From an uncultured Bacteroidales bacterium (GTDB lineage Bacteria > Bacteroidota > Bacteroidia > Bacteroidales > VadinHA17), in contig CAVOKP010000013.1 of the NCBI GenBank assembly GCA_963696535.1, forward strand, positions 241,790 to 305,789: DNA of 64,000 nucleotides. The letters are read 5' to 3'. The notes under the pieces were generated by a model. That model was not told the origin of the DNA and made no database searches. It worked only from the letters and a program-made list of their open reading frames with translations. The number at the start of each line of letters is the position of its first letter. The stretch's first letter is position 1. The translations under genes were made by a program, and so were the position numbers. Below, in pieces: positions 8,441 through 33,700 of the stretch.

Positions 8441-8509
8441 CATTGCGGATTGCGGATTAACGAATTCGGATTTCCAATCCGAAATCACAAATTCGAAATC
8501 CGAAATTTC
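8441..8509. repeat. 7-nt periodic element (GCGGATT / TCGGATT words), inverted homolog of 14030-14100
   Basis: Parses as TTGCGGA TTGCGGA TTAACGA ATTCGGA TTTCCAA TCCGAAA TCACAAA TTCGAAA TCCGAAA. Its reverse complement aligns with 14030-14100. Confidence 0.75.
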
Positions 8510-14029: not shown

Positions 14030-14143
14030 GAATTTCGGACTTCGGATTTGTGATTTCGGATTTCAAATCCGCAATCCACATTCCGCAATCCGAAATAATT
14101 TCATTCCGCAATCCGCAATCAAAAATCCGCAATCCGCAATCAA
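14030..14143. repeat. 7-nt periodic element (TTCGGAT / AATCCGC words)
   Basis: Reads TTTCGGA CTTCGGA TTTGTGA TTTCGGA TTTCAAA TCCGCAA ... AATCCGC AATCCGC. The first ~70 nt are an inverted homolog of 8441-8509. Confidence 0.75.
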
Positions 14144-14903: not shown

Positions 14904-16271
14904 CTATTTATCGTTTCCCTGAAGCAGGTTTTTAATATCAGGGTCTCCTGCGTAATCCATTGCAGTTTTGCCTTCATTATCCTTAAGATCGGGGTTTGCC
15001 CCTTTTTCAAGGAGCAGCTTTACAACATCCGCATGGCCGTTCATAGAAGCAACCATAAGATCGGTGTATTTTGCAGTTTTGTTCGCATATACCTGTCCGG
15101 GTCTTTTAAGGAATATTTTTGCGATTGCCGTAAATCCGCTTCTCGAAGCACGGATAAATGCTGTTGTTTTATCGGCTTTTGCGACAAGTTCGTCATTTTC
15201 CCTGCTCCATGGGGATAATTTGACAGCCTCCAGAGCCCCGCTTTCGTTTGAAGTGACCATTGCCGTAACATTCTCGGTAAACTGAAGCTCCTTTTTAAGT
15301 CCTGCGTAAAGTTTTGTCCGGATACTGTCAGCAATATCATCCCGTGCTGTAATTACAATTGCTTTTGTACCATCAGTCTCACGTGAATCTGGTTTAGCTC
15401 CGTTTTCAAGCAATGCCTTAACAATTGCCGTATGGCCGTTAAGAGATGCAAGAAAGAGGGCATTTGATCCGTCGGCCGTTTTAAGGTTGATATCGGCGCC
15501 GGAAGCCATAAGGAACTTCACGAAATCAGTCTGTCCAAGCATAGCTGCCGTCATCAGGGCAGTTGTTCCCCCCTTGTCGGCAAGGTTCGGATCTGCCCCT
15601 GCGTCGAGAAGCAGCATGGCAACAAATGTGTATCCGAATAGTGAAGCCTGGATAAGGGCGGTTGTATTGTAGTTATAATCCTGGATATCCACCAGGGCTC
15701 CCTTATCGAGCAATAGTGTAATTATTTCCGTATAACCGTTCTGTGCGGCCAGCATCAGGGATGTATAACCGTCGTATGCCCTGATATTCGGATTTGCTCC
15801 ATAGTCGAGCAATAATTTGACTATTTCAGTGTGGCCGTTCTGGGCGGCCATCATAAGAGCACCAGTGCCGTCAAGGGCTTGCAAATCAGGATCAAATCCT
15901 TTTTCAAGAAGAAGTTTTACTATCCTGGCATGACCATTATAAGATGCGAACATTCCGGCAGTTGCTCCGTCAATGGCCGCCAGGTTCGGATCGGCTCCCC
16001 GGTTGAGCATGATCCTGACTGCTTTCGTATATCCCTTCGATGCTGCATACATAAGTATGCTTCTGTCGTAGATATCGGTGTAATTCACATTATTGACGTT
16101 CCTGGCAATTTCTAGCATGTTGATCCTGTCCTGTGCATTCTCCTGACGCTCCATTATTTTTTCTTCCTTAGCTTCCTGAGCTGAGAGATCGATTGTTCCA
16201 CAGAACAATAATAGGACGATTAAGGCTGATGTATAAATCGTTTTCATCTGATGTGGTTTAAAAGCTGACAA
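14904..16271 (-). CDS. secreted ankyrin-repeat protein
   Basis: Signal peptide followed by about ten 33-aa ANK units of the type G.TALM.AA..GH..IVKLLL..GA.PN. Confidence 0.85.
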   Translation of the reverse strand: MSAFKPHQMKTIYTSALIVLLLFCGTIDLSAQEAKEEKIMERQENAQDRINMLEIARNVNNVNYTDIYDRSILMYAASKGYTKAVRIMLNRGADPNLAAIDGATAGMFASYNGHARIVKLLLEKGFDPDLQALDGTGALMMAAQNGHTEIVKLLLDYGANPNIRAYDGYTSLMLAAQNGYTEIITLLLDKGALVDIQDYNYNTTALIQASLFGYTFVAMLLLDAGADPNLADKGGTTALMTAAMLGQTDFVKFLMASGADINLKTADGSNALFLASLNGHTAIVKALLENGAKPDSRETDGTKAIVITARDDIADSIRTKLYAGLKKELQFTENVTAMVTSNESGALEAVKLSPWSRENDELVAKADKTTAFIRASRSGFTAIAKIFLKRPGQVYANKTAKYTDLMVASMNGHADVVKLLLEKGANPDLKDNEGKTAMDYAGDPDIKNLLQGNDK

Positions 16272-16533
16272 CCTGGTATTCAGCCATTAAACAAACAAAG
16301 AGCAGGAATGTTCTCTACTCCACAGTTTTTATGATAGTTACAACACCAAAGTTCCAAATAATCAATGTTATAAAATTACAAAAGATTCTGCTAACAATCA
16401 TAATACTGAATCCGGAATTAGCGGAAGGGAACGGAGGAGAAACACGAAAAATTATGAAAATCCGGAGAAACACCTTTATTAGAGCCTCTTTCCTGCAATA
16501 TACATCAGTGCCATGCCGTTTATATTAAGAATT

Positions 16534-16728
16534 ATGAAGGCAAAAAGAAATATCAGGGAGAAGGTTAAAACCAAGTTTGTTAAGATTAACAATTCAACCT
16601 GGATTGAGACCGATGTTTCGATTCCTGATGAAGTTGCCAGAATGCATTATTATCAGAAGGCAAATCATACACAACCTCCCACATATATAGGCCAGCTCAG
16701 GGATTATATTTCAAACATCAATATCTGA
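16534..16728 (+). CDS. small basic hypothetical protein
   Basis: The ORF is followed directly by a good terminator. MKAKRN is preferred as the start. No family was recognised. Confidence 0.3.
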   Translation: MKAKRNIREKVKTKFVKINNSTWIETDVSIPDEVARMHYYQKANHTQPPTYIGQLRDYISNINI

Positions 16729-16745
16729 TCAGGATAGGCAGTCTG

Positions 16746-16773
16746 CCTCCGGGATCGTTTCCGGAGGTTTTTT
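16746..16773 (+). terminator. intrinsic terminator
   Basis: Stem CCTCCGG (16746-16752) pairs with CCGGAGG (16761-16767), followed by TTTTTT (16768-16773). Confidence 0.7.
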
Positions 16774-16856
16774 ATTGGAAAATATTTCCATGACATTAAT
16801 AAAACATTGACTTTTGTGAATGCAAAGACTAAATTTGTATTGACAATCGCGTAAAT

Positions 16857-16988
16857 ATGGCCCAAAAGATATTCAACGAGTATCCCAAGCGAAAAACAGT
16901 CGCTTTCTGGATCGCAATAACCATAGGTTTGGTTTTGTTTGCCTGCCTGATGTTCCTGCTGGTCAATTACACCATGGCCCTGTTCTAG
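16857..16988 (+). CDS. candidate 43-aa single-pass membrane peptide
   Basis: My own translation gives MAQKIFNEYPKRKTVAFWIAITIGLVLFACLMFLLVNYTMALF. A TAAATTTG (TAnnTTTG) box lies at 16830-16837. The ORF is absent from the supplied track because it is under 60 aa. Confidence 0.3.
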   Translation: MAQKIFNEYPKRKTVAFWIAITIGLVLFACLMFLLVNYTMALF

Positions 16989-17152
16989 TGCCGGATTGGT
17001 TATATTAATGATATTCAGCTAATTACTGTAGATCCAGAATGCGGATTCTGTTCCATAGTTAATAAAATCTTATTTCAATTAAAAGTTTTATTTTTAAGCA
17101 ACCGGTTAACTCTAGTCACTCTAAGTACTCTGATTTTAATAACTATTTTACC

Positions 17153-17899
17153 ATGAAATATTCATTTAAACCTTTGCCTGCTCTGATAGCGGTAATCCTG
17201 TTTTTATTTCCCCGGATAGACTCACTGTCACAGGAAACTGCGATCGAGTTTGGGGAGGCCATTTTCCTGAAAGACTTTACTCCTGCTGACCAGAAGAAGA
17301 ACATACAATTGAAATGGATAAATGTCAATACGGCTGAGGAGACATGGTCAAAGCGGAGAAAGGTGCTGAAATGCTTCGGTGATCCAATAGGTGTGATGCG
17401 ATCAGAGAGGCAATTTGAAAATTTCATGCTGCATATCGAGTGGAAGCACACCGAGCCCGGAGGTAATTCAGGAGTATTCGTCTGGTCCGACGCCATTCCC
17501 GACGAGAAATCGCGCCTCCCAAATGGAGTTGAAGTTCAGATGCTTGAGCTTGATTGGGTAAAACTTAATACGCGGGATGGCGTCATTCCTCCTGATGCAT
17601 ATGTGCATGGCGAGCTTTTTGGAGTTGGTGGGGTGACTACAACGCCCGACAATCCAAGGGGAACCAGGAGCAAGTCGGTCGAAAACAGGTGCAAGGGCAG
17701 GGGCAACTGGAATGTTTATGATGTGGTGTGCGTTGATGGTGTAATTAAGCTTTCGGTAAACGGTAAATTTGTAAACGGGATAAGCAAGTCATCAAAGAAA
17801 AAGGGATATGTCTGTCTGGAATCAGAAGGAGCAGAGATCCATTTCCGGAATATAAAAATCATCGAGCTGCCTGCAGGAACGAATCCTGAAGGACTCTGA
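17153..17899 (+). CDS. DUF1080 (3-keto-disaccharide hydrolase-like) secreted protein
   Basis: Signal peptide plus DUF1080 hallmarks: [12 protein letters not shown]...GGNSGVF and the C-terminal [14 protein letters not shown]. Confidence 0.75.
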
Positions 17900-17921
17900 T
17901 GACCCATCAGGCTTCAGGGAT

Positions 17922-18272
17922 TCAGCCCCCGTCCTCCCTTCCTGATAAAACATGGTGCAGGATAAACAATGCACCTGTGATCAATATCGGAACCAGGATT
18001 ATCAATGATCCTGAATTGCCTGAGAAAGTCTTGAAAAATATTGCAAGCGCCAGGCTCAGAAGGATAAAAATCATGCCTCCGATAATTTCATTTTTCCATG
18101 CGATGACCAAAGCAACGATCAGAACAAAGGCTGGAATGTTGTGGATCAGAAATCCAAGAAGCTGTTTGCCCATCGATTCTTCTCCTCCAAAGGAATCGAG
18201 GGAAAACATCATCATGAAGAGTATCGCAAGGATAGCCAGTATCCTTGGAAACCATAACAGGATTTTAAGCAT
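17922..18272 (-). CDS. small integral membrane protein (hypothetical)
   Basis: Has four predicted hydrophobic helices. The start MLKILLWFPRIL is preferred. The antisense ORF 17899..18297 has non-protein-like composition. Confidence 0.5.
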   Translation of the reverse strand: MLKILLWFPRILAILAILFMMMFSLDSFGGEESMGKQLLGFLIHNIPAFVLIVALVIAWKNEIIGGMIFILLSLALAIFFKTFSGNSGSLIILVPILITGALFILHHVLSGREDGG

Positions 18273-18506
18273 TGTTTCTGATTTCGTTAATGAATAACAG
18301 GGAAATTTTGAATCAAATACCTGTTGAAAGGTATGATTAATATGAAAGCAAGGCAAATATATTTAATGCAATGACTGTCTTTATCCGCCTCCCGATGGAT
18401 ATTTGGTCATTATTATATTGATATACAATAATTTATATACCTGAAACAACAATTATTTTATCTGAAACAATATCTTTTTATTTCATCAAAAAGATGTCCT
18501 GAATAA

Positions 18507-18541
18507 TTTGGAGAATTGCAATTTATAAACTACATTTGTAG
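18507..18541 (+). promoter_or_regulatory. Bacteroidetes-type promoter with an overlapping BlaI-type operator palindrome
   Basis: TTTG (18507-18510), a 20-nt spacer, then TACATTTG (18531-18538), which matches TAnnTTTG. The perfect dyad CTACA-TT-TGTAG (18530-18541) contains the TACA/TGTA half-sites typical of BlaI/MecI operators. Confidence 0.6.
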
Positions 18542-18566
18542 ATAGTTGTCACTAAAAGTAGACAGA

Positions 18567-18944
18567 ATGTACCTGACAAACGCCGAGGAGCAAGTAATGA
18601 AGGTGCTGTGGGAACTTGAAAAAGCCTTCATTCGGGATTTAATGAATGAATTTCCTGATCCGAAACCTGCCCAGACCACTGTTTTTACATTACTGAAAAG
18701 AATGATCGACAAGGGCTTTGTGGGTTTCAGGCAGTACGGGAATTCGCGGGAGTATTATCCTCTTGTAACAAAGAGTGAATATTTTTCGCGTCAGATCGGC
18801 AGCATGATCAAGGATTTCTTCAACGACTCCACTGCGCAGTTTGCATCATTTTTTGCCGGCGCGACTGATATGACCAGGGAGGAACTTGAGGAACTGAGGG
18901 AAATAGTGGATAAAAAAATTGCTAATAAAAAGGCAAAGAAATGA
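18567..18944 (+). CDS. BlaI/MecI/CopY family transcriptional repressor
   Basis: Winged-helix N-terminus LTNAEEQVMKVLWE. It is about 125 aa and overlaps the downstream M56 gene by 4 nt. Confidence 0.85.
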   Translation: MYLTNAEEQVMKVLWELEKAFIRDLMNEFPDPKPAQTTVFTLLKRMIDKGFVGFRQYGNSREYYPLVTKSEYFSRQIGSMIKDFFNDSTAQFASFFAGATDMTREELEELREIVDKKIANKKAKK

Positions 18945-21043
18945 CTGCTTTCATCATCAAGTCAGGTATCAGCATGGTTTTGCTGTTCGGTCTCTATTAT
19001 ATGAATCTCAGGAAAGAAAAGCTTTTCATCTTCAACAGGTATTACCTGATATTCTCGGTTCTGTTTTCCCTGACTGTACCCTTCATTTCGATCCCGGTGA
19101 ATATCGGCTCTCAAAATGCAGTCAGCGAATTAATGACAGTTCTGAACTATAAGCCTGAGTTAAATCCAATTGAGCCAGGAGCTGGAGCAGTCATTCCGGA
19201 AGAACCATTTCCAGGTATGGCAGATTTTTATTATTTGGATCAACCTGAATTAACAGGATTTCCCCCGTTTGACCTCAAAAAAATCCTGTTAATACTATAC
19301 CTGTCGGGACTTATGCTGATGCTGGTCCGGTTCTGCAGGAATATTTTACTCGTTCGCCGGATGTACAGGCGTTCTGAAAGAAATGAACATGAAGGATACA
19401 AGATTGCCTTGCTTGATTATCCCGTTAATCCATTCAGCTTCCTTAGTACGGTTTTTCTTAACAGGCAGGACTACCTTGAAAAGCGGATTGCCGGGAATGT
19501 CCTCAGGCATGAGATTGAACATGTCAGACAATCCCATTCATACGATATCATTTTCTTTGAGATGCTGCAGATAGTTTACTGGTTCAATCCGGTGGTTTTT
19601 CTTTATGAATGGGCAGCGAGGATCAACCACGAATATCTTGCTGATGAAGCAGTAGTCAGAAACACATCAGACAAAGAGACTTATGCATCTGACCTGATTA
19701 ATTTCATAACGGGCAGAGCCGGTGTGCCGTTTGCAAGCGGATTCGGTCAGTCCATGATAAAGAAGCGCCTGTTTATGCTGAACACGAAGAGCAGCAGGCG
19801 GACCAGTAATATCAGGTTGGGAATCACCATGATTATATCGGTTCTGCTGCTGATTGTCTCGGGAATCAGGCCAGCTTACTCTGACAATCAGGATCGCAAA
19901 AGCAAAAAGCAGATTGCTGTAAATGATGATATTGTGATTGAAGAAGTAAATTTCAGAAATCCAGATTTCAAGATTACGAAAGCCCTGGTTGTAATCGATG
20001 GCAGGGAACTTGGTCCAGATGACACTTTAAAAGTTGACCCGAAAAAGATTAAAGCCATTGGTATTCTCAAGGATCGCAGGGCAATCCGTAAATATGGCAG
20101 AATCGCCAGGAATGGGGCTGTTGAGATAACAACTTATGAAAATAACAAGGGATATGAACCTGATTCACTGTATTTCAAGCCAATTTATACAGTAAACAAT
20201 AAGATACCTGAAGGTCCGGTAACAATCCCGTTTTTGAATCTGTATTCATTAAGTATCTGGACTTATCCGATATTCCCCCAGCAGGATCTCATAAAGCGGT
20301 GGAGGACGATAGATATAATGACAAGGGACTATTACAGGATAAGAGGAAAGGTTATTCAGAAGAATGGTGAACCTTTGCCCGGAGTGGTGGTAACCGTCTC
20401 TGACAATCCTTCGAGGGTGACTTCAGACAGAGACGGGCGTTTTCTCGTGGAGGATGTAGGATCAAAGGCCGTTGCTGAATTATCGGCTGAGGGATATGAA
20501 CCTCTCTATTTTAAAGCAGGCGGAATGGTCTTCAAGTCTGACCTGACGATAACACTCGACAAAAAGGATGAACCTGATCAAACCGTGATATGGCTTAATG
20601 ACAAAATCAGGGATTTTTCAGGCAGATGGAAATACAACAAGGAATTGTCCGGGCTGCCCGTCAATTTAAATAATTATGTTTATGATATCAGTCAGTATGG
20701 TTCTGATTCAATGATGATAAGCACTTCGGCGACTCTTAAAAATGACAGGGAGCTTAATCACAGCGGGGTGTTTGTCTTCAATTCAGTAAAGACCGAAGAA
20801 TCAGATATATATGAAACCACAAAATCCACAATCACATGTTCGATCGATGCTGGCGGACAATCCTTCTCAATAACCCGTCAGATGAAGAGCAAGATTGGAT
20901 TGTACAGTGAGAACAGAATGACTGATACTTATTCGCTCAGTGATGATGGAAAACAGCTGATAATCCGCACATTAATCTATATACCCGGCGATCCTTCCGG
21001 ACTACCCAGAGAAATTCCAAAAATGGTTTTTGACAGGATGTGA
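18941..21043 (+). CDS. M56 (BlaR1-like) membrane metalloprotease / signal transducer with a long extracytoplasmic C-terminus
   Basis: N-terminal TM helices, the HExxH site RHEIEHVRQSH, and a CarboxypepD_reg-like segment (RGKVIQKNGEPLPGVVVTVSD) in the C-terminal half. Confidence 0.8.
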   Translation: MTAFIIKSGISMVLLFGLYYMNLRKEKLFIFNRYYLIFSVLFSLTVPFISIPVNIGSQNAVSELMTVLNYKPELNPIEPGAGAVIPEEPFPGMADFYYLDQPELTGFPPFDLKKILLILYLSGLMLMLVRFCRNILLVRRMYRRSERNEHEGYKIALLDYPVNPFSFLSTVFLNRQDYLEKRIAGNVLRHEIEHVRQSHSYDIIFFEMLQIVYWFNPVVFLYEWAARINHEYLADEAVVRNTSDKETYASDLINFITGRAGVPFASGFGQSMIKKRLFMLNTKSSRRTSNIRLGITMIISVLLLIVSGIRPAYSDNQDRKSKKQIAVNDDIVIEEVNFRNPDFKITKALVVIDGRELGPDDTLKVDPKKIKAIGILKDRRAIRKYGRIARNGAVEITTYENNKGYEPDSLYFKPIYTVNNKIPEGPVTIPFLNLYSLSIWTYPIFPQQDLIKRWRTIDIMTRDYYRIRGKVIQKNGEPLPGVVVTVSDNPSRVTSDRDGRFLVEDVGSKAVAELSAEGYEPLYFKAGGMVFKSDLTITLDKKDEPDQTVIWLNDKIRDFSGRWKYNKELSGLPVNLNNYVYDISQYGSDSMMISTSATLKNDRELNHSGVFVFNSVKTEESDIYETTKSTITCSIDAGGQSFSITRQMKSKIGLYSENRMTDTYSLSDDGKQLIIRTLIYIPGDPSGLPREIPKMVFDRM

Positions 21044-21166
21044 GCTGGCATTCCAGATCCACAATCACCACGGATAACACGGAAATACACGGATTTAAAA
21101 TTACCGGTTATAATAAAATTGACTTTGGCATTTTGCTGGTGTAACTTTGATATTTAATCTTTTATT

Positions 21167-21412
21167 ATGGGAGAAATTGATGGAGAATGGTTATTCGCTG
21201 TCTGGATGTGGATAGTGGTTGTGATGCTTATTGTGATGGGAATAAGGGATTATCGGGCAAGAAGGCATTTGCCCAAGAATCCCGGGGACAAACGAGCAAA
21301 TCGAAGAATTGCTTTGGATAATCTTAAATTTTTCCTTGGAATAAAGGATAAGGATGATGGTGATAATCCAATGAAACATTTGGCAGGAGATAATGATACA
21401 CTTTTCAGATAA
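21167..21412 (+). CDS. small membrane-anchored hypothetical protein
   Basis: Has one hydrophobic helix (WLFAVWMWIVVVMLIVMGI) and a charged tail. No family was recognised. Confidence 0.3.
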   Translation: MGEIDGEWLFAVWMWIVVVMLIVMGIRDYRARRHLPKNPGDKRANRRIALDNLKFFLGIKDKDDGDNPMKHLAGDNDTLFR

Positions 21413-21430
21413 AGTATCCCCCCAACTTTA

Positions 21431-21575
21431 GAGCAGCACAGCCAATTTGATCCTTAGCCCTGAAAGGGCATGAAAAAGGCACCACCAATGTGGTGCGATG
21501 TGAATTACCACCGGTAAAACCGGTGGCTTATGGTGCCCCCTTGATGTCAAGCCCTGAAAGGGCGGGATGCTGCTT
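21431..21575. repeat. four-hairpin structured element, copy A (candidate ncRNA or structured repeat)
   Basis: Hairpins are GCCC-TGAAA-GGGC (21457-21469), GCACCAC-CAAT-GTGGTGC (21479-21496), CCACCGG-TAAAA-CCGGTGG (21508-21526) and GCCC-TGAAA-GGGC (21551-21563). A possible closing stem is GAGCAGCA / TGCTGCTT. Its homolog is at 26331-26462. Confidence 0.6.
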
Positions 21576-21585
21576 TAGAAAAGGA

Positions 21586-22596
21586 TTAATCATTGATGAA
21601 TATTCCATCTCCTGTGCCAAGCCAGATCCTCTTGTCGGTTGCCTGTTTGATTGTAAATACACTTGACTCTCTGAAGGTTGAATCATCGACAATCCATCGT
21701 TCTCCGTTAAACACTGCATATCCTCCTGACATAGAGCACCATATGTTATCCTCATCATCGACTGTCAGTGATTTTATTCTGGCCATGTCATTGATTCTTA
21801 ATTGTTCCGTATTATGTTCATCAAATATGAACACCTGAGGTCCGGGATTTATCCCAAGGCTTGATAATGAATAATCAATGGCTCCGCATATTTTATTTTG
21901 AGAATTGATATCAATGTTGGTAAAATAATAAGGGACAAATCCCAGGTCTTCACTTGTATATGTCTTCCAGTTTGTTCCTGAGATCTTTATCAGATATGTA
22001 TTATTTACAACTTCTGATAAGGCGAGCCAGACGTTATCATCACTATCGATAGCAATGCCCTTTACGGAATTGACCGGCAACTTTGAATTCTCCGGTGTAA
22101 AGACTTTCCAGTCAGTTCCATCAAATCTGACAAAACCTCCTTCCCTGAATCTGCAGGAAGTAAACCATACATTATCTTTTGAATCAATAGCTATCGAGTA
22201 AACAAAATCCTCGGGAATGGGGCTGTTGGATGTATTGTAATGTGTAAACTTACTGCCATCATATTTAATGATTCCGTCACAGCCGATCCATACATTATCC
22301 TTGCTGTCAACAGCAATATCCCAAATGACTGAGCCGGCAGGCAGAATTGAATTAGAAGAATTGTAAATTATAGTTTCCTGCGGATTATATTTTATTAATC
22401 CCTGTTTAAAGGTCCCGACCCAGGCATTTCCTTTGCTGTCAAATGCAATGGATTTAACGAAATAGCCTTCCAGTATTTTTAAGTCAAAGCTGGTGTTTGG
22501 ATTACCTGGCGATTTATCAGGGAAACTTGTTTTCTCACAGGAAGCGAGAGAAATCAATAAAGCTAATATGGTAGCTATATTTTTCATTATCAGCAT
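21586..22596 (-). CDS. lipoprotein with two-component-regulator-propeller (Reg_prop) beta-propeller repeats
   Basis: Lipobox LISLASC and repeated DSKGNAWVGT / DSKDNVWIG / DSDDNVWLA motifs, about seven blades. Confidence 0.75.
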   Translation of the reverse strand: MLIMKNIATILALLISLASCEKTSFPDKSPGNPNTSFDLKILEGYFVKSIAFDSKGNAWVGTFKQGLIKYNPQETIIYNSSNSILPAGSVIWDIAVDSKDNVWIGCDGIIKYDGSKFTHYNTSNSPIPEDFVYSIAIDSKDNVWFTSCRFREGGFVRFDGTDWKVFTPENSKLPVNSVKGIAIDSDDNVWLALSEVVNNTYLIKISGTNWKTYTSEDLGFVPYYFTNIDINSQNKICGAIDYSLSSLGINPGPQVFIFDEHNTEQLRINDMARIKSLTVDDEDNIWCSMSGGYAVFNGERWIVDDSTFRESSVFTIKQATDKRIWLGTGDGIFIND

Positions 22597-22682
22597 TTAT
22601 ATGATGAGTTTCATTACTGTTTCGTTGCGTTACCTGGTGATTTATTTTAATTGTTCAATTACTTACAAATGATCATTGTGTG

Positions 22683-22922
22683 TCATTTCCTGCCTGAAAT
22701 AACAGCTCTGCCCGCGTAGCCAAAAGCATTTAGAGTGCGTTTGTTTTCTGCCTATTCCATGATTGCTTCAATAGCCTCGCGCGGCCGCATGTCATCCGGT
22801 CGTTCTTTTTCAAAGAATTTAAGAAGTCTCCCGGCTTCTTTAGCTGGTTTAAAACCAAAAAGTTTATGGTAGTAAGAATCACGCCATAATTTACTGTCTT
22901 TGGATTTTGGTGCTTTTATCAT
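22683..22922 (-). pseudogene. decayed paralog of the Imm5-like gene at 25422-25802
   Basis: Aligns with 25422-25802 but carries TGG->TAG (open only for 56 aa, MIKAPKSKDSKLWRDSYYHKLFG...EAIME*) and an internal deletion of roughly 125-130 nt. The 3' end ...NAFGYAGRAVISGRK is still recognisable. Confidence 0.7.
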
Positions 22923-23117
22923 TTAAAGTCATTAATTCCCGTTTAAGGGCTAAAATTCCCACAAATTGTTACAAAAGTATCAGAAAATGATACAAAAGTG
23001 GTAGACTTTGATATTTGATTAGCCGAAATTTGATTTAGAATTTATGATAAGGATCCTGGAAACTGATAATGCAAACTCTGATATCAAATTCTTTATATTA
23101 ACTAAATCCATTCAACT

Positions 23118-23552
23118 ATGAAAACAAAAGCCTTCTTTTTGCTATGTCTGTTTCTTGCCTTTTCTGTTTCTCAGCTTTCTGCTCAAACCTTAAAGAAAGG
23201 TGCTGTAGTTGCAGTTGGCGTTTATGAAATGACACTTAATCCTGACGTATCAATGAATCAATTTATTGATTTTTACAACAATAAATATGTTCCGGAACTT
23301 GATAAGAACTGGCCGGGTATAAAGACATATTTAATGATTGGTGATAGAGGAGAGAACAAGAACAAATTAGGTATGATTCTGATTTTTGAATCTGTTGCTG
23401 TAAGAGATAAATACTATCCGGTTGAGGATGAGGAAACCCTCTCTGATGCAGTTAAAGCGGCAAACGAAAAGATGAAAGTAATTGATGCTGAAATGAGCAA
23501 ATATGTAGTTTCTGGAACTAGGACAACCTATACTGACTGGATTATTAAGTAG
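23118..23552 (+). CDS. secreted hypothetical protein (144 aa)
   Basis: Clear signal peptide MKTKAFFLLCLFLAFSVSQLSAQ. No family was recognised. Confidence 0.5.
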   Translation: MKTKAFFLLCLFLAFSVSQLSAQTLKKGAVVAVGVYEMTLNPDVSMNQFIDFYNNKYVPELDKNWPGIKTYLMIGDRGENKNKLGMILIFESVAVRDKYYPVEDEETLSDAVKAANEKMKVIDAEMSKYVVSGTRTTYTDWIIK

Positions 23553-23851
23553 TAATCTTTTAACAATCTGTTTCTTTTAAAGCCCTGGAAAATCAGGTAC
23601 GAAGGGAAGGTGGTTTTTATTTTACACCAGTCATTTAAGATTGTGTTTAATGCAAACGTAGAGGTAACAGTTGATCACCATGTTGAGAAAATTCAATTCC
23701 CGGGGAATGTATCATTATTAAAGATGTTACAGAAGAATCAAATCCGGGGATTGCATTCTGACTTCGGATGGCATAGCAGGCTACATCCGATTAATCCGGC
23801 GATCCGTTGGCTCTATCCTAAAATGAAACCTCATGAAGAATTGTTATAGGT

Positions 23852-25126
23852 TTACTCAACTGAAGGGTCACTGACCTTTCCCATAAATAATATAGTGCCT
23901 GTTGAGGTTTCGTGGATGAAATACAGGAAGGGGCGATCAAGATCAATTTTCCAGATGGTCGGTTCCGGATCCGGTCCTGCCGAAGTAAACCTGATCTCCA
24001 CGATTGTAGCTGCTGCCGCTTCCGTGCCCTCCTCATTTGTTTCGATGAATGACTGATGGATTACTCTGCTTATCTGAAGCCGTTGATCACTTATATTTCT
24101 GAAATCAGCCCCGTCGGAGAAGGCAATACCCATTCCCAGGCCTATCAGATCTTCATTTAATAATCTTTTGTAGTCATATTTGAACCTCGGCATGCTGAGT
24201 TCAACAATATGAGTGTTATTTTCCAGCAGCGACATCCATTTATTCCACTTTGATGATGTGAGAGACTCCGCTGCATCAGAAACGGAAACACCGGCATCGG
24301 GTAATACGATTAACATTGAATAATTGCCCTGCCCATATGGAATATCGACAATCATAAGTTCATTGTCTTTTGCAGCTTTCAGGTTTTCCTCCTGGTGCAT
24401 CATCGGAACATTTTTGGGTTCTGCTGGTGTAACATAGAACGGTTCTTCCTTTGTGTCAGTCTTGTCAAACTGATACCTCCACTTCCCGTTGAAATAGACA
24501 GCATTTATCAGAAGCATTGCAAGATCAGGATCAAGGTTATCGAGCATATCGATAATCTTATCGTGGGTTTTTTCCTCAATCCACCCGTTTACAATATCAA
24601 CTGCATCAGGATCTGTGACATCAATGCCTCTTGCTTCAGCTTTGTACCAGTTTTGTACGTCGTTCATAAACTTCTGTTTAACCAAAAGCCGTTTTTCAAC
24701 CCAGACTGAGTTGGCGATTTCGAGTACCACCCGTTCATCAACCGGTACCATCTCAGTCATCAACTTGAGGTAGGTATCATTTATCTGTTCAAGTGTATTA
24801 CCATCGAGTCTTAAAGCCTTTTTCATAGCTTCAAAGGTCTCGCCAGATGCACCATTAAGGGTCATTGAAAGAGCGCTGGTGATGCTGAAGGGAGAGATCA
24901 TTATGTTCTCATTTCCTTTTGCATCAGAAAGGATTGGTTTGAACAGATCAAATGCAAATGTATTTGCAGAGTCTATTACTTCTTTTTGATGAATATCCGT
25001 AACAATGGTTACAGGATCTCCCGGATCGATGGGCTGATCATTTTGACCATTTTTTTTACAGGAAGGAACCAGAACAAGTGAAATGAAAGCTGTTAAAAAC
25101 AATACAACTTTGGATATATTTTTCAT
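23852..25126 (-). CDS. serpin (serine protease inhibitor) lipoprotein
   Basis: Serpin motifs SPFSITSALSMTLNGASGET, the inhibitory-type hinge EEGTEAAAAT and the C-terminal DRPFLYFIHE. The start MKNISKVVLFLTAFISLVLVPSC (lipobox) at 25126 is preferred over 25171. Confidence 0.85.
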   Translation of the reverse strand: MKNISKVVLFLTAFISLVLVPSCKKNGQNDQPIDPGDPVTIVTDIHQKEVIDSANTFAFDLFKPILSDAKGNENIMISPFSITSALSMTLNGASGETFEAMKKALRLDGNTLEQINDTYLKLMTEMVPVDERVVLEIANSVWVEKRLLVKQKFMNDVQNWYKAEARGIDVTDPDAVDIVNGWIEEKTHDKIIDMLDNLDPDLAMLLINAVYFNGKWRYQFDKTDTKEEPFYVTPAEPKNVPMMHQEENLKAAKDNELMIVDIPYGQGNYSMLIVLPDAGVSVSDAAESLTSSKWNKWMSLLENNTHIVELSMPRFKYDYKRLLNEDLIGLGMGIAFSDGADFRNISDQRLQISRVIHQSFIETNEEGTEAAAATIVEIRFTSAGPDPEPTIWKIDLDRPFLYFIHETSTGTILFMGKVSDPSVE

Positions 25127-25170
25127 ATAGAGGGTATTTAGGTTACAATTCCTGAACAAAAATTGTACCA

Positions 25171-25395
25171 TTATAAATCATTGATGAAGATTCCATCTCA
25201 TGGACCAAGGCAGATACGCTTGTCGGTTGCCTGTTTGATTGTAAATACACTTGATTCTCTGAAGGTTGAATCATCGACAATCCATCGTTCTCCGTTAAAT
25301 ACTGCATATCCTCCTGACATTGAGCACCATATGTTATTCTCACTATCGATTGTCAGTTATTTTATTCTAGCCATATCATTGATTCTTAGTTGTTC
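25171..25395 (-). pseudogene. 3' remnant of a propeller gene paralogous to 21586-22596
   Basis: The reverse strand reads NDMARIK*LTIDSENNIWCSMSGGYAVFNGERWIVDDSTFRESSVFTIKQATDKRICLGP*. It is homologous to the last ~70 codons of 21586-22596, contains stop codons, and lacks the upstream ~850 bp. Confidence 0.75.
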
Positions 25396-25421
25396 AATTA
25401 CTGACAAATGATGATTATCTG

Positions 25422-25802
25422 TCATTTCTTCCCTGAAATAACAGCTCTGCCCGCGTAGCCAAAAGCACCCAGGGCATGAGTAGGCACATGCCAGGACCCG
25501 ACAGCTTGTCCGGCAGCATGTGCAGCATATTTTGCAGCATTGGATTTTGCATCCCGGGCAGCGGCATGAGCATTAAGAGATAGTATGCGAACCTCTTTCA
25601 TTCCAAGAGTGCGTTTGTCCTCCGACCATTCCCTGATTGCTTCAATAGCCTCACGTGGTCGCATGTCATCGGGTCGTTCCTCCTCAAAGAATTTAAGAAC
25701 TCTCCCGGCTTCCTTCGCTGCTTTAAGACCAAAAAGTTTATGGTAGTAAGAATCACGCCATAATTTACTGTCTCTGGATTTTAGTGCTTTTATCATTTGC
25801 AA
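25422..25802 (-). CDS. Imm5-like helical protein (family often mis-annotated as SbcC; putative immunity-type protein)
   Basis: The pattern FEEERPDDMRPREAIEAIREW...AHAAARDA...AAHAAGQAV...HVPTHALGA is recalled from the Imm5-like family. No search was run. The true start may be the third codon (25796). Confidence 0.5.
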   Translation of the reverse strand: MQMIKALKSRDSKLWRDSYYHKLFGLKAAKEAGRVLKFFEEERPDDMRPREAIEAIREWSEDKRTLGMKEVRILSLNAHAAARDAKSNAAKYAAHAAGQAVGSWHVPTHALGAFGYAGRAVISGKK

Positions 25803-25885
25803 GATAGAATGTTGTTATATGCTGAGAACCATTTCATTAGGCAGTGATGACTGCTTAATTGTTAATTATATTAGTGTAATAAAAT

Positions 25886-26227
25886 TAACTGCCTATCCCT
25901 TTCAGTCAAGTATAAGATGACTTTCGGGAATGATATATAAAATTATCAATTTTTGTTATTTATACCCCCTTCCCAGCCTTCCCTGCAGACTGGCTCCTTC
26001 GCTAAAATTGCCCACCGGGCAATTTCTTAACGCTCGACCCTCCCACGGGGGAAGGAGCAAGGCCTCCCGCTTTGCGGGACGGGAAAGGGGGTCAATTAGA
26101 ATAATAGAAAATTTACTGATTAATAAAGTTAAGATTCAAAATATTTTAAGACTGACTTCTTATTAGTGATTCCCGACACTCAATTTAATAAAATGTCAAC
26201 TACTTGATTAAAAGGGATAGGCAGTTA
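25886..26227. repeat. 17-bp inverted repeats enclosing a GC-rich palindromic element
   Basis: TAACTGCCTATCCCTTT (25886-25902) is the exact reverse complement of AAAGGGATAGGCAGTTA (26211-26227). The core at 25965-26091 (CCCCCTTCCC...GGGAAAGGGGG) is homologous, in inverse orientation, to 34998-35118. Confidence 0.65.
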
Positions 26228-26330
26228 AAATTAATTATAATACTCCATTATAGACAGATGAAGTCATCTTCGGCAAGTTTTATTTTATCCTGATTCTCCA
26301 TCTTGCGACAATTGAACAGCTATGCAGATT

Positions 26331-26462
26331 ACATTATGCTCTGCCCTGAAAGGGCAAAACAAAGGCACCACTAATGTGGTGCGATGTGAATAACCGCCGG
26401 TGTAACCGGTGGATGGATGCCACCCAATGATGTCAAGCCCTGCAAGGGCGCGATGTTATTCA
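26331..26462. repeat. four-hairpin structured element, copy B
   Basis: Hairpins lie at 26343-26355, 26365-26382, 26394-26412 and 26437-26449. Their spacing is identical to copy A (offsets 0/22/51/94). Differences fall in loops or give a G-U pair (CCGCCGG / CCGGTGG). Confidence 0.6.
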
Positions 26463-26490
26463 AAATCCGCACAAATGAAAGATGACTTAA

Positions 26491-26636
26491 GGTGACGAGA
26501 ATTCAGGATTGCCTCCGGCGATCCATTGGTGGGGGAGCTTCAAAGGCATCAGATCAGACGCCCTGCGGGCTTTAACGAGGGATTACCTCCTCTCTTCATT
26601 CGTCGGTGATCCCTTGTGGGGGAGGCTTCAAAGCCA
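26491..26636 (+). repeat. two tandem ~85-nt units (candidate small RNA region)
   Basis: GGCGATCCATTGGTGGGGGAGCTTCAAAGGC (26517-26547) matches GGTGATCCCTTGTGGGGGAGGCTTCAAAGCC (26605-26635). Each is preceded by ACGAG..GGATT.CCTCC. No credible ORF is present. Confidence 0.4.
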
Positions 26637-26644
26637 GAGAAAAA

Positions 26645-26671
26645 ACACGCCTCTGGCGTGTTTTATTTTTT
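26645..26671. terminator. bidirectional intrinsic terminator
   Basis: Stem ACACGCC (26645-26651) pairs with GGCGTGT (26655-26661). It is flanked by an upstream A-run and a downstream TTTATTTTTT. Confidence 0.65.
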
Positions 26672-26723
26672 GTTTTACTTTCGCCACCTTTCGAAAGCGA
26701 GCTTTCTTTGGTGTCTCAGTAAA

Positions 26724-26749
26724 ACAAAAAAACCGTGCTTTGCACGGTT
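26724..26749 (-). terminator. terminator downstream of tRNA-Ser
   Basis: Stem AACCGTGC (26731-26738) pairs with GCACGGTT (26742-26749). An A-run on the + strand (26724-26732) gives a T-run on the - strand. Confidence 0.7.
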
Positions 26750-26760
26750 TTCTCTGGCTT

Positions 26761-26852
26761 TGGCGGAGAAAGAGGGATTCGAACCCCCGGTCCACCGATA
26801 GGCGGACAACGGTTTTCAAGACCGCCGCATTCGACCGCTCTGCCATTTCTCC
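26761..26852 (-). tRNA. tRNA-Ser (anticodon UGA), CCA encoded
   Basis: The reverse complement is GGAGAAATGGCAGAGCGGTCGAATGCGGCGGTCTTGAAAACCGTTGTCCGCCTATCGGTGGACCGGGGGTTCGAATCCCTCTTTCTCCGCCA. It has acceptor GGAGAAA/TTTCTCC, anticodon loop CT-TGA-AA, a long variable arm and the T-loop GTTCGAATC. Confidence 0.9.
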
Positions 26853-27182
26853 ATACACTTATGAACCCTAAACCGCATTCAACCGCGGAGTCTATCCCGC
26901 ACGGCGGGACCATTTCTCCATTTCTCTCACTCTTTTCCGGTCCGCCGCAAAGATAATATTTTTTTGACTTTTTGGAATTTTTATCTCAAATAATCGAAAT
27001 GTCAGATTATCAGACAGATATACTATTTATTAACAGGATTTTAACATTTCCAAATGCTCAAAATGCGGAAATCTAGAACTAATGGGCTGTTGCGACATTT
27101 TTTAATCACCGGGTAAATTTCCTGAAAAACACCCCACTTTGTACTAAAACCGCCACTATTTGCGCAAAATAGACAAAATTTA

Positions 27183-27213
27183 TTTGCACATGATATAAAT
27201 TGGAATATATTTG
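27183..27213 (+). promoter_or_regulatory. Bacteroidetes-type promoter of the HU gene
   Basis: TTTG (27183-27186), a 19-nt spacer, then TATATTTG (27206-27213), which matches TAnnTTTG. It lies ~43 nt upstream of the ATG at 27256. Confidence 0.55.
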
Positions 27214-27255
27214 TACCCAATTAGAACCATTGGTCTAACCCTTAAATCTTTCATT

Positions 27256-27525
27256 ATGACAAAAAAAGAATTAGTAAATGCAATTGCTGAGGATGCAGGT
27301 CTTTCAATCAAAGATTCAGGCAAGGCTTTGAATTCATTCGTTGCAGCTTTTGGAAAAGCAATGAAAAAAGGTCAGAGAATCCAGCTCCCGGGAATGGGTA
27401 CCTTTAAAGTTGCAAAAAGAAGCGCAAGAGTTGTTCGCAACCCCCGTACCAATGCAAAACTGAATGTTCCTGCAAAGAAAGTTGTGAAATTCAAACCCGC
27501 CCCTGCTCTTAACAAAGGTCTTTAA
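27256..27525 (+). CDS. hup: HU family DNA-binding protein
   Basis: MTKKELVNAIAEDAGLS...GTFKVAKRSARVVRNPRTN is canonical HU/IHF. The ATG at 27256 is preferred because the promoter overlaps the TTG at 27211. Confidence 0.9.
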   Translation: MTKKELVNAIAEDAGLSIKDSGKALNSFVAAFGKAMKKGQRIQLPGMGTFKVAKRSARVVRNPRTNAKLNVPAKKVVKFKPAPALNKGL

Positions 27526-27548
27526 TCCCAATTTATTGAGATTGCCTT

Positions 27549-27578
27549 GGGGGTGTTTATCAAACACCCCCTTTTTTT
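27549..27578 (+). terminator. intrinsic terminator of the HU gene
   Basis: GGGGGTGTTT-ATC-AAACACCCCC followed by TTTTTTT. Confidence 0.85.
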
Positions 27579-27743
27579 GAACAAATCCACCATTTCCCTG
27601 TTTCTTGTTGAAGAAAAAGTTATGTTAGTTAAATACGGGTGTTTGAAAAACTATAAACACCATATTAAAATAATATTCGTAAAGTAGTTTTCAATTTTTT
27701 TACTATTTTTGATCTGCTAAATCCCGGTTCAAAAAAGAAAGCA

Positions 27744-28451
27744 ATGAACTGTATAATAGTCGATGATGATAAACTGAGCTGTAAACTCCTTGAAGGCTAT
27801 GTCAACAAATATGCCTCGCTGAACCTGGTTGGCGTATTTAACGACCCTGTTACCGCAAGGAATGAAATCTCGAAACAAAAAGATGTCGACCTTATACTGC
27901 TCGACGTTAAAATGCCCGAAATGGACGGCTTCGATCTTATCGGAAGCCTCGATCATCCGCCCAACATTATAATTGTATCGGGAGGCGGGGAATTTGCCCT
28001 GAAAGCTTTTGATTTCAATGTTGTCGACTTTCTCCTGAAACCTGTCTCATATGCGAGGTTTTGCAAGGCCATCGACAAGGTAGTCCGCTATTTCTCTCCC
28101 AAGGAAATCAGCAAATCGGGCGATGAGGAGATCTTTATTAAGAAAGGCTCATCACTTGTTAAGCTTAAGCTACGGGAAATCGTTTTTGTGGAAGCTCTTG
28201 AAAACTATGTCACCCTCAACACAAATACCGAGAAGTTCACTATTCATTTTACGATGAAAGCCATCGAAAGCCAGCTTCCGTCAGGTGTATTTATAAGGGT
28301 CCACAGGTCATTCATTATAAACAAGAGCATGATCCAGGCCATCAAGGAGAGCTCCCTTGATTTAATGGTTGGTCATACATTTAAGAACATTCCGGTTGGA
28401 AAATCATTCAGGGATTCACTTCTGAACGACATTAACGTGATGGCCAGATAA
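27744..28451 (+). CDS. LytTR-family response regulator (REC + LytTR)
   Basis: REC domain (IIVDDD...DLILLDVKMPEMDG) and the C-terminal LytTR motif (FIRVHRSFIIN). No adjacent kinase gene. Confidence 0.85.
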   Translation: MNCIIVDDDKLSCKLLEGYVNKYASLNLVGVFNDPVTARNEISKQKDVDLILLDVKMPEMDGFDLIGSLDHPPNIIIVSGGGEFALKAFDFNVVDFLLKPVSYARFCKAIDKVVRYFSPKEISKSGDEEIFIKKGSSLVKLKLREIVFVEALENYVTLNTNTEKFTIHFTMKAIESQLPSGVFIRVHRSFIINKSMIQAIKESSLDLMVGHTFKNIPVGKSFRDSLLNDINVMAR

Positions 28452-30555: not shown

Positions 30556-30560
30556 TTTTG

Positions 30561-30705
30561 CCCCTAAATCCCCTGAAGGGGACTTTCGCGTTATCCGGAA
30601 AATCAAAGAGGGTGTCTCATAAGCCAACAAAATTACCCCCTGCCCCCTAAAGGGGATTCTCTAAAATACTGAATATCTGAAAGTCCCCTTTAGGGGATTT
30701 AGGGG
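30561..30705. repeat. MITE-like element with 26-bp terminal inverted repeats
   Basis: CCCCTAAATCCCCTGAAGGGGACTTT (30561-30586) matches the reverse complement of AAAGTCCCCTTTAGGGGATTTAGGGG (30680-30705) with one mismatch. The right half is duplicated at 1401-1500. Confidence 0.7.
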
Positions 30706-30844
30706 TAGGTAACGAGAAGCAGGCTTTTGAGACAACCTCTAGGGGACAAAACAACCAAAAAGTGACTATTTGTCAGTTTCCAGTGAACGGCATATATTTT
30801 GAATGGAAATGGGGTTGATTGTCTAACCTTTTAAAATTACCGAT

Positions 30845-33597: not shown

Positions 33598-33700
33598 TTA
33601 ACCGCAAAGGACACAGAGTATTCGCAAAGGTCGCGAAGTACTTTTTAATAGTCTATTAGCTTTGCGTGCTTTGCGAATACTCTGTGTCCTTTGCGGTTAA
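33598..33700. repeat. perfect 32-bp inverted repeat (103-bp palindromic element)
   Basis: TTAACCGCAAAGGACACAGAGTATTCGCAAAG (33598-33629) is the exact reverse complement of 33669-33700. The loop is 39 nt. It lies in the divergent region between the 33505(-) and 33802(+) starts. Confidence 0.85.

Follow-up and report, generated by a model that had tools for sequence, protein, structure and literature searches.

We analyzed a 64,000-nt stretch of contig CAVOKP010000013.1 from an uncultured Bacteroidales bacterium (the window, meaning this whole stretch), which carries two copies of a non-coding element of about 135–140 nt built of four hairpins: copy A at 21433–21573 and copy B at 26324–26459. 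We propose, with a probability of about one half, that this element is a low-copy, non-autonomous or relic mobile structured spacer repeat, of the kind of MITEs (miniature inverted-repeat transposable elements), BOX elements, and repetitive extragenic palindromes with their bacterial interspersed mosaic elements (REP/BIME). If this reading is right, the element is a previously undescribed family within this general kind, outside any named family. An earlier note on this DNA had left the choice between a novel structured RNA and a structured mobile repeat. Our results favor the mobile repeat, on the basis of the discrete ends, the terminal inverted repeat (TIR) and direct repeats at copy A, the presence/absence of the element at both sites, its modularity, and its homologs in unrelated contexts. 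They do not favor an indispensable new RNA: the hairpin body is absent in strains 96–99% identical to the window, copy B is absent beside the same genes, and the close copies show no compensatory change. Presence/absence and discrete ends were the evidence that we counted as decisive, and they argue for a dispensable element. The element is confined to a lineage of uncultured Bacteroidales.

Both copies were found where the earlier note had placed them and, as it had claimed, their hairpins (hp1 to hp4) start at the same offsets of 0, 22, 51, and 94 nt. Read on the plus strand, copy A consists of a 24-nt leader starting with GCAG, the four hairpins, and the tail GGGATGCTGC. Its hp1 (21457–21469, GCCC-TGAAA-GGGC, that is GCCCTGAAAGGGC) has the same sequence as hp4 (21551–21563, GCCC-TGAAA-GGGC), which is preceded by TGATGTCAA, while hp2 (21479–21496) reads GCACCAC-CAAT-GTGGTGC and hp3 (21508–21526) reads CCACCGG-TAAAA-CCGGTGG. 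The conserved GATGTGAATTA on the 5′ side of hp3 forms, together with this hairpin, the core that copy A has in common with distant homologs. The two identical 13-nt hairpins hp1 and hp4 bracket a variable body of 94 nt (21470–21563) composed of a linker, hp2, the GATGTGAAT linker, hp3, the TGATGTCAA linker, and hp4 itself. Copy B, also on the plus strand, has a 19-nt leader starting with GCAG, hp1 at 26343–26355, hp2 at 26365–26382, hp3 at 26394–26412, hp4 at 26437–26449, and the tail GCGATGTTAT. The two copies are 81% identical over 120 nt in register and without gaps (repeat search, family D3, with which MAFFT agrees), and this likeness spans the whole unit and stops at its edges. Mismatches in the MAFFT alignment are of all kinds. 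The linkers GATGTGAAT and TGATGTCAA are indeed the same in A and B, and only one of the 44 stem positions differs, giving a G-U pair, so that pairing is kept as previously noted. In contrast, the possible closing helix of copy A is present in this copy but missing from copy B and all its orthologs. Within this helix, GCAGCA (21433–21438) and TGCTGC (21568–21573) form a 6-bp TIR, and the 6-bp direct repeat TTTAGA (21427–21432 and 21574–21579) lies exactly outside it, as a possible target-site duplication. Each copy folds better than 200 of 200 dinucleotide shuffles on both strands (z = −4.4 to −6.9), and the element contains only short open reading frames (ORFs), with stops in the other frames. 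The general order of modules is a GCAG leader, a terminal hairpin X (GCCCTGAAAGGGC), an optional hp2, the core (AUGUGAAUAA, hp3, and a linker), a second X, and a tail GGGATGYT.

Comparison with related loci (designated by L numbers) showed that site A exists in three states, namely a three-gene block, a one-hairpin short form, and the four-hairpin form of the window. In the window, copy A begins 45 nt past the stop (21410–21412) of a plus-strand 81-aa ORF and occupies a convergent spacer between this ORF and a minus-strand propeller gene (21586–22596), whose stop at 21586–21588 is about 10 nt away, as had been reported. It belongs to a 168-nt segment (21418–21585) without homology to the relatives L110 and L005; in these two loci, as well as in L129 and L130, the 168 nt are replaced by ABC2, ABC, and helix-turn-helix (HTH)-pentapeptide genes (2.8 kb). 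Two further loci, L127 and L128, are 96–99% identical to positions 17973–22220 of the window, and their site A reads TTTAGA-GCAGCACATCCAATTTGATCCTTA-GCCCTGAAAGGGC-GGGATGCTGC-TTTAGA. They therefore have the leader, tail, TIR, and flanks of the window with a single hairpin, and lack the 94 nt that the window holds between hp1 and hp4. As hp1 and hp4 are identical 13-mers, recombination between direct repeats or slippage would give exactly this difference. Given a divergence of about 20% between the bodies of A and B, it is more economical to assume that L127/L128 lost this stretch by deletion than that the window gained it recently. The converse event, insertion of an 81-nt core into an existing hairpin with duplication of 13 nt, was judged less likely because of this same distance and because the terminal hairpins of L001, a distant copy, are dissimilar. 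Although short-read assembly could collapse a 13-nt repeat, the short form agrees in two independent assemblies from different projects.

Copy B lies, as the earlier note had indicated, between an Imm5-like gene and a tRNA-Ser (26761–26852, minus strand, the sole ARAGORN call in the window). Its presence is also variable: the element follows a lipoprotein gene by about 50 nt in L110 and L114, while in L005 and L117 the same lipoprotein gene is followed by about 46 nt instead of about 197 nt, and the element is missing. Four unrelated left flanks join the copy B orthologs within about 5 nt of GCAG, with which copy A also begins, and breakpoints of the variable region beside tRNA-Ser coincide with this left end of the element. 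In addition, the phylogeny of copy B disagrees with that of its flanks. L111 is 98% identical to the window in its flanks and 87% in the element, and L114 is 91.5% identical in its flanks and 98% in the element. The leader of the copy B of the window looks chimeric between two allele types.

Besides L015, five more copy B orthologs (L110, L111, L114, L118, and L119) were recovered through an identical HU protein beside tRNA-Ser, which brings them to six; in close relatives they lie about 300 nt from this tRNA gene. Copy A is equidistant (78–82%) from all of them, whereas the B orthologs are 84–99% identical to one another, indicating that copy A is an old paralog and not a local duplicate. When 1.4 Mb of related loci were searched with an nhmmer profile made of A, B, and L015 alone, two diverged copies emerged, one in L095 (E = 1.5e-6) and one in L001 (E = 1.5e-3). 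These have three hairpins and lack hp2, but retain AATGTGAATAA and hp3, followed by a linker of about 24 nt that leads to the terminal hairpin. Only weak matches were added by a covariance model of the core (R1), in L018, in an inverted neighbor in L095, and as a partial copy in L001; E-values of this model are rough, and the matches in L018 and on the minus strand of L095 are weak. The three-hairpin relatives thus occur in other Bacteroidales and at unrelated gene contexts. With only 48% identity between the LytTR regulator adjacent to the L095 copy and that of the window, the lineages that share the core are distant ones. The terminal hairpin and tail recur in L001 without the core, directly after a propeller gene. 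A linkage of the element to the propeller gene was nevertheless rejected, since nine homolog loci (78–92% identity) lack the element 3′ of this gene, except for the partial copy in L001. All copies are located in spacers, in most cases a short way 3′ of a stop codon and within a convergent gene pair: the island genes and the 3′ side of tRNA-Ser enclose copy B and its orthologs, and the copies in L001, L018, and L095 follow stop codons. No third copy was found in the window, including by a covariance-model search with filters off. All copy numbers refer to the sampled 64-kb window and related loci and are not whole-genome counts.

The earlier note could not match the element to RNase P, SRP, 6S, tmRNA, tRNA, or a riboswitch consensus. 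A search of Rfam 15 likewise returned nothing at gathering score or at E ≤ 10 for either copy, and nothing at E ≤ 1 for the homologous sites of L095, L001, L018, and L110. Phage and plasmid collections (BLAST) contained no match to the element, three pattern scans of viral contigs gave no matches or only glycine-rich coding ones, and the hairpin and linker strings had no match in the literature.

To what extent the stems are conserved, and on which strand, bears on the alternative that the element is a genuine structured non-coding RNA (a small RNA or a 3′ untranslated region module) made from the plus strand, in which GAUG and AUGUGAAUAA would be bound by a protein or an RNA and the copies would be paralogous genes. 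Such an RNA would be new, given the absence of known family matches, and the folding scores reported above speak for it. In the close set of eight full-length copies (A, B, and the six B orthologs), 97% of the stem cells pair, five of them as G-U, and stem columns vary less than non-stem columns (6/44 vs 30/69, p = 0.0009); within the B orthologs alone the figures are 6/44 and 18/69 (p = 0.16). However, compensation of the stems, whose lack in further homologs the earlier note had named as a refutation, was not seen in this set, where we counted no compensatory double change against five unpaired substitutions; this refuting condition thus speaks in part against the RNA reading. It was only partly seen in distant copies, with clear compensatory variants such as GCTC/GAGC and CCCCGG/CCGGGG. 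When distant and weak matches are included, 3 of 11 pairs are changed on both sides, but these come largely from weak matches aligned to the model itself, and the alignment leans toward structure because it was fitted to it. Moreover, palindromes recognized as DNA would covary alike, so the distant compensation does not decide between RNA and DNA. Some other features lean toward the plus strand. GATG occurs three to six times per element on this strand and never on the minus strand (0.74 expected), without helical phasing in its spacing; wobble-type stem changes comprise about four independent G-U on the plus strand versus one C-A; and in RNAalifold hp4 gains nine pairs, an extension that includes three G-U pairs and that only the plus strand allows. 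Folding energies, both consensus and single-sequence, show no strand preference. Most copies lie 3′ of a co-oriented gene and the core is common to distant lineages, which would suit an RNA. On the other hand, four unrelated left flanks begin within 19 nt of hp1, so that a conserved promoter would not fit, L127 and L128 have lost the four-hairpin body although they are nearly identical to the window, and copy B is missing from close relatives. The reduced variation of the stems and the few distant compensatory pairs leave room for a role at the RNA level, but we regard a genuine structured RNA as rather unlikely.

Two other explanations invoke the surroundings of the element. In one of them, the copies are remnants of a recombination site, either direct repeats ending a 4.9-kb island beside tRNA-Ser or attC-like cassette sites. 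The copies do bracket 21.6–26.3 kb within a low-GC region (0.37–0.41 vs 0.45–0.49) that ends at tRNA-Ser, where synteny with all relatives breaks. The cargo is lineage-specific with breakpoints at the left end of the element, and the bracketed propeller, Imm5-like, and serpin genes are duplicated or shuffled, the propeller gene being a dispersed single-gene module. But the segment has no integrase inside or next to it, and the only tyrosine recombinase is encoded at a distance of 17 kb by a XerC/D-like gene of 299 aa. The alignment of copy B to its orthologs is colinear from end to end, an identity of 81% over 120 nt is unlike att cores, and in L110 the island genes are the same although the element is there only once. 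An attL/attR pair was rejected for want of an identical core, chimeric arms, and an adjacent integrase. Integron attC sites were rejected as well, because the RYYYAAC/GTTRRRY boxes do not pair (one near-match, CCCCAAC, lies left of copy A and has no partner), the element has four separate hairpins and not one imperfect hairpin, and no IntI-like gene is present. Nor do the copies form the template and variable repeats of a diversity-generating retroelement, since mismatches are not adenine-specific, both copies are non-coding, and the window has no reverse transcriptase. We consider a recombination-site remnant very improbable. A somewhat better case, though still a poor one, can be made for an ordinary compound bidirectional terminator that evolved in place, the similarity of A and B being due to local segmental duplication. 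Both copies lie between convergent units (the 81-aa ORF and the propeller gene for A, the island genes and tRNA-Ser for B), adjacent segments are duplicated at 90–91% identity (families D1, D2, and D6), and on the minus strand hp2 is followed by a T-rich tract, CTTTTTCAT in copy A and CTTTGTTTTG in copy B, that scores terminator-like in both. Against this, only one of the four hairpins has a U tract, and on one strand only (hp1, hp3, and hp4 have none on either strand, and hp2 is missing from the distant homologs). Between the two copies, the element reaches 81% identity, compared to 90–91% for the duplicated genes, which are arranged differently relative to it, and it was therefore not copied along with those genes. 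Finally, a terminator evolved in place would not explain why homologs exist in distant Bacteroidales at unrelated loci, why the linkers are conserved, or why GATG is biased to one strand.

For a mobile spacer repeat, the following course of events can be proposed. The element would insert into short spacers 3′ of genes and then lose its body, through slippage or recombination across the identical 13-nt hairpins, and homologous exchange through the element would probably help to shuffle the adjacent cargo genes. When it is transcribed at the 3′ ends of convergent genes, its GC-rich hairpins would probably serve as structures of the transcript end, in termination or in protection against 3′ exonucleases, a role that has been proposed for REP and BOX elements. 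The core shared by the window and the distant copies consists of AUGUGAAUAA, a CCNCCGG-loop-CCGGNGG hairpin, a linker of about 24 nt, and a GCYC-UGAAR-GRGC hairpin. A more speculative view, which we hold to be improbable, is that this core is the payload, a functional RNA module of a new class that a small mobile carrier moves between Bacteroidales lineages. Such a module could be, for example, a protein-binding or processing signal on the GAUG-rich strand, the dispensable flanking modules being the vehicle.

Several observations weigh against a mobile spacer repeat. Its copy number is low: the two-linker pattern (24 bases) had no match in 185,579 representative genomes, L015 is the one genuine case among its eight matches in the JGI metagenome set, and nothing beyond the copies listed was found in about 1.6 Mb of related loci. 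The few matches across these searches indicate that the family is real but rare, unlike the classical REP, BOX, and MITE families, which are abundant. There is neither a transposase nor a RAYT in the 64-kb window. A clean empty site was not recovered, and at both sites the alternative state is a replacement and not a precise excision. Copy B and its six orthologs have no TIR and no target duplication, and at copy A, G-U pairs would also allow the TTTAGA repeat to be taken as a continuation of the closing helix. The lower variation of stem columns in the close set does not favor this reading, and the conserved unpaired motifs (AUGUGAAUAA and the one-stranded GATG) are unlike a decaying selfish repeat. 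As for the role at transcript ends, we infer it from position and anatomy, with hp2 and its U-rich tail on the minus strand.

The anatomy of the element was compared with that of known systems. Pneumococcal BOX elements (boxA-boxB(n)-boxC) combine terminal modules with variable internal ones, a TIR, a target duplication, and length variation between strains, and are often co-transcribed as 3′ adducts of genes (PMC3049150). The element is likewise short, non-coding, strongly folded, and located in spacers. Its leader, one hairpin, and tail are constant in L127/L128, the window has an extra 94-nt body, and L095 and L001 lack hp2. It differs from BOX in its copy number (one or two per sampled genome region, compared to more than 100 per genome), in its internal body, which is not a tandem array of one module, and in having a TIR and direct repeat at copy A only. 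This comparison is one of anatomy and not of sequence, homology not being expected because the host phylum differs. REP/BIME sequences are tagged palindromes located 3′ of ORFs, between convergent or co-directional genes, for which roles in termination and mRNA stability have been proposed (PMC3733652). The element resembles them in its position, also 3′ of ORFs and between convergent or co-directional genes, and in its clustered short GC-rich palindromes with an unpaired tetranucleotide, here GATG on the 3′ side of stems (CATC on the 5′ side, on the other strand). Further points in common are service as a substrate for rearrangement and the proposed roles in termination and mRNA stabilization. 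However, REPs are high-copy, with one consensus per family, GTAG or CGTC tags, and alternating orientation in BIMEs, whereas the element has three different palindromes in one orientation, GATG instead of GTAG or CGTC, a low copy number, and no RAYT in the window.

With MITEs such as Correia, RUP, and ERIC, the element shares a size of 100–200 bp, the lack of coding potential, and folding, as well as a 6-bp TIR with a 6-bp flanking direct repeat at copy A and insertion polymorphism between strains. It departs from them by a very short TIR that is missing from copy B, by being GC-rich relative to its surroundings while MITEs are usually AT-rich; moreover, neither a parent insertion sequence (the 64-kb window has no transposase) nor a clean empty site was found. 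Like intrinsic terminators, it places GC-rich hairpins just after stop codons in convergent spacers, and hp2 with CUUUUUCAU / CUUUGUUUUG on the minus strand fits the simple terminator pattern. Unlike them, it has four hairpins with conserved linkers, three of which have no U tract, and the same 135-nt unit recurs at unrelated loci.

If the element is a mobile spacer repeat, it would add a previously undescribed small structured family in environmental Bacteroidales, a group in which such elements are poorly cataloged. It would also mark recombination-prone junctions of a variable region linked to tRNA-Ser and account for assembly breaks and strain-level length differences in this region. For RNA discovery, it offers a caution, as a very clean multi-hairpin pattern in two copies may still be dispensable. 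No long-standing question is opened, and the one-stranded GATG and AUGUGAAUAA motifs matter only if they prove constrained in a larger set.

Concerning the genomic setting, a housekeeping gene content and the lack of a transposase indicate that the window is chromosomal. The low-GC stretch (16–28 kb, 0.37–0.41 vs 0.45–0.49 elsewhere), which stops at tRNA-Ser, has genes of the ankyrin-repeat, BlaI/BlaR1-like, propeller, serpin, and Imm5-like types, and no integrase was found in it (16000–28000). Synteny with every relative is kept on the right of tRNA-Ser and broken on its left, where each relative examined has a different set of genes, a sign of a hot spot of gene turnover. Along the minus strand from the right, tRNA-Ser comes first and copy B second; then come a pair of 33-nt inverted repeats, the Imm5-like gene, a propeller remnant, and the serpin gene, followed by a 144-aa gene (plus strand), an Imm5-like remnant, the propeller gene in its intact form, and finally copy A. 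The Imm5-like/propeller pair forms a mosaic duplication (21585–22924 vs 25173–25798, 90–91% identity, families D1, D2, and D6), which leaves an Imm5-like remnant at 22752–22922 and a propeller remnant at 25173–25395, flanking the serpin and 144-aa genes. L110 has this pair only once.

The propeller gene (21586–22596) is itself a dispersed single-gene module, found in loci L001, L002, L005, L101, L102, and L120–L126. In at least eight different gene neighborhoods it is accompanied by about 70 nt of upstream sequence (ACGCAACCAA...TCATCATATAAAT) and about 40 nt of downstream sequence (GTACTGCCGCCAACACGGAC), and the ends of several contigs, each about 1.13 kb long and from different samples, fall near the same points around it. 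In the window, copy A replaces the usual 3′ flank of this gene.

A second structure abuts the 3′ end of tRNA-Ser(UGA). It is a symmetric multi-stem structure of about 140 nt (26626–26762), whose outer and central stems are AAAGCCAGAGAAAA/TTTTCTCTGGCTTT and TTTTGTTTTAC...GTAAAACAAAA, respectively, and which has one GC hairpin with a T tract per strand; partial tandem units of it lie at 26505–26560 and 26579–26645. It is present in 19 related loci, just upstream of tRNA-Ser where checked, and matches no Rfam family. RNAalifold on 10 relatives gave 49 pairs, and compensatory double changes were seen at 26 of these. As a structured element it may be more robust than the four-hairpin one, but a long palindrome in which the two arms stay similar at the DNA level would be another possible reading. 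Immediately to the left of copy B, the 33-nt inverted repeats (25880–25912 and 26201–26233, 88% complementary) enclose 288 nt with a 78-aa ORF without Pfam match, and this pair may be a small inverted-repeat element.

Elsewhere in the window, 66-nt inverted repeats (8442–8507 and 14031–14096, 83% complementary), built of short repeats of the AATCCGCAAT / ATTTCGGATT type, bracket a 5.5-kb block resembling inositol catabolism, with thiamine pyrophosphate (TPP) enzyme, aldehyde dehydrogenase, TIM-barrel, and GFO/IDH/MocA genes. A second family of spacer repeats, with GTCCCCTTTAGGGGATTTAGGGG and AAGCAGGC...TTGAGACA, occurs at 1400–1500 and 30560–30760 in direct and inverted copies. A palindrome at 33598–33700 (pair I2), with 41-nt arms that are 93% complementary and a 21-nt loop, occupies the spacer between the DUF7935 and aminotransferase genes. 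Hairpins resembling CCCTGAARGGG are over-represented in the window as a whole, with 16 found and 2.6 expected.

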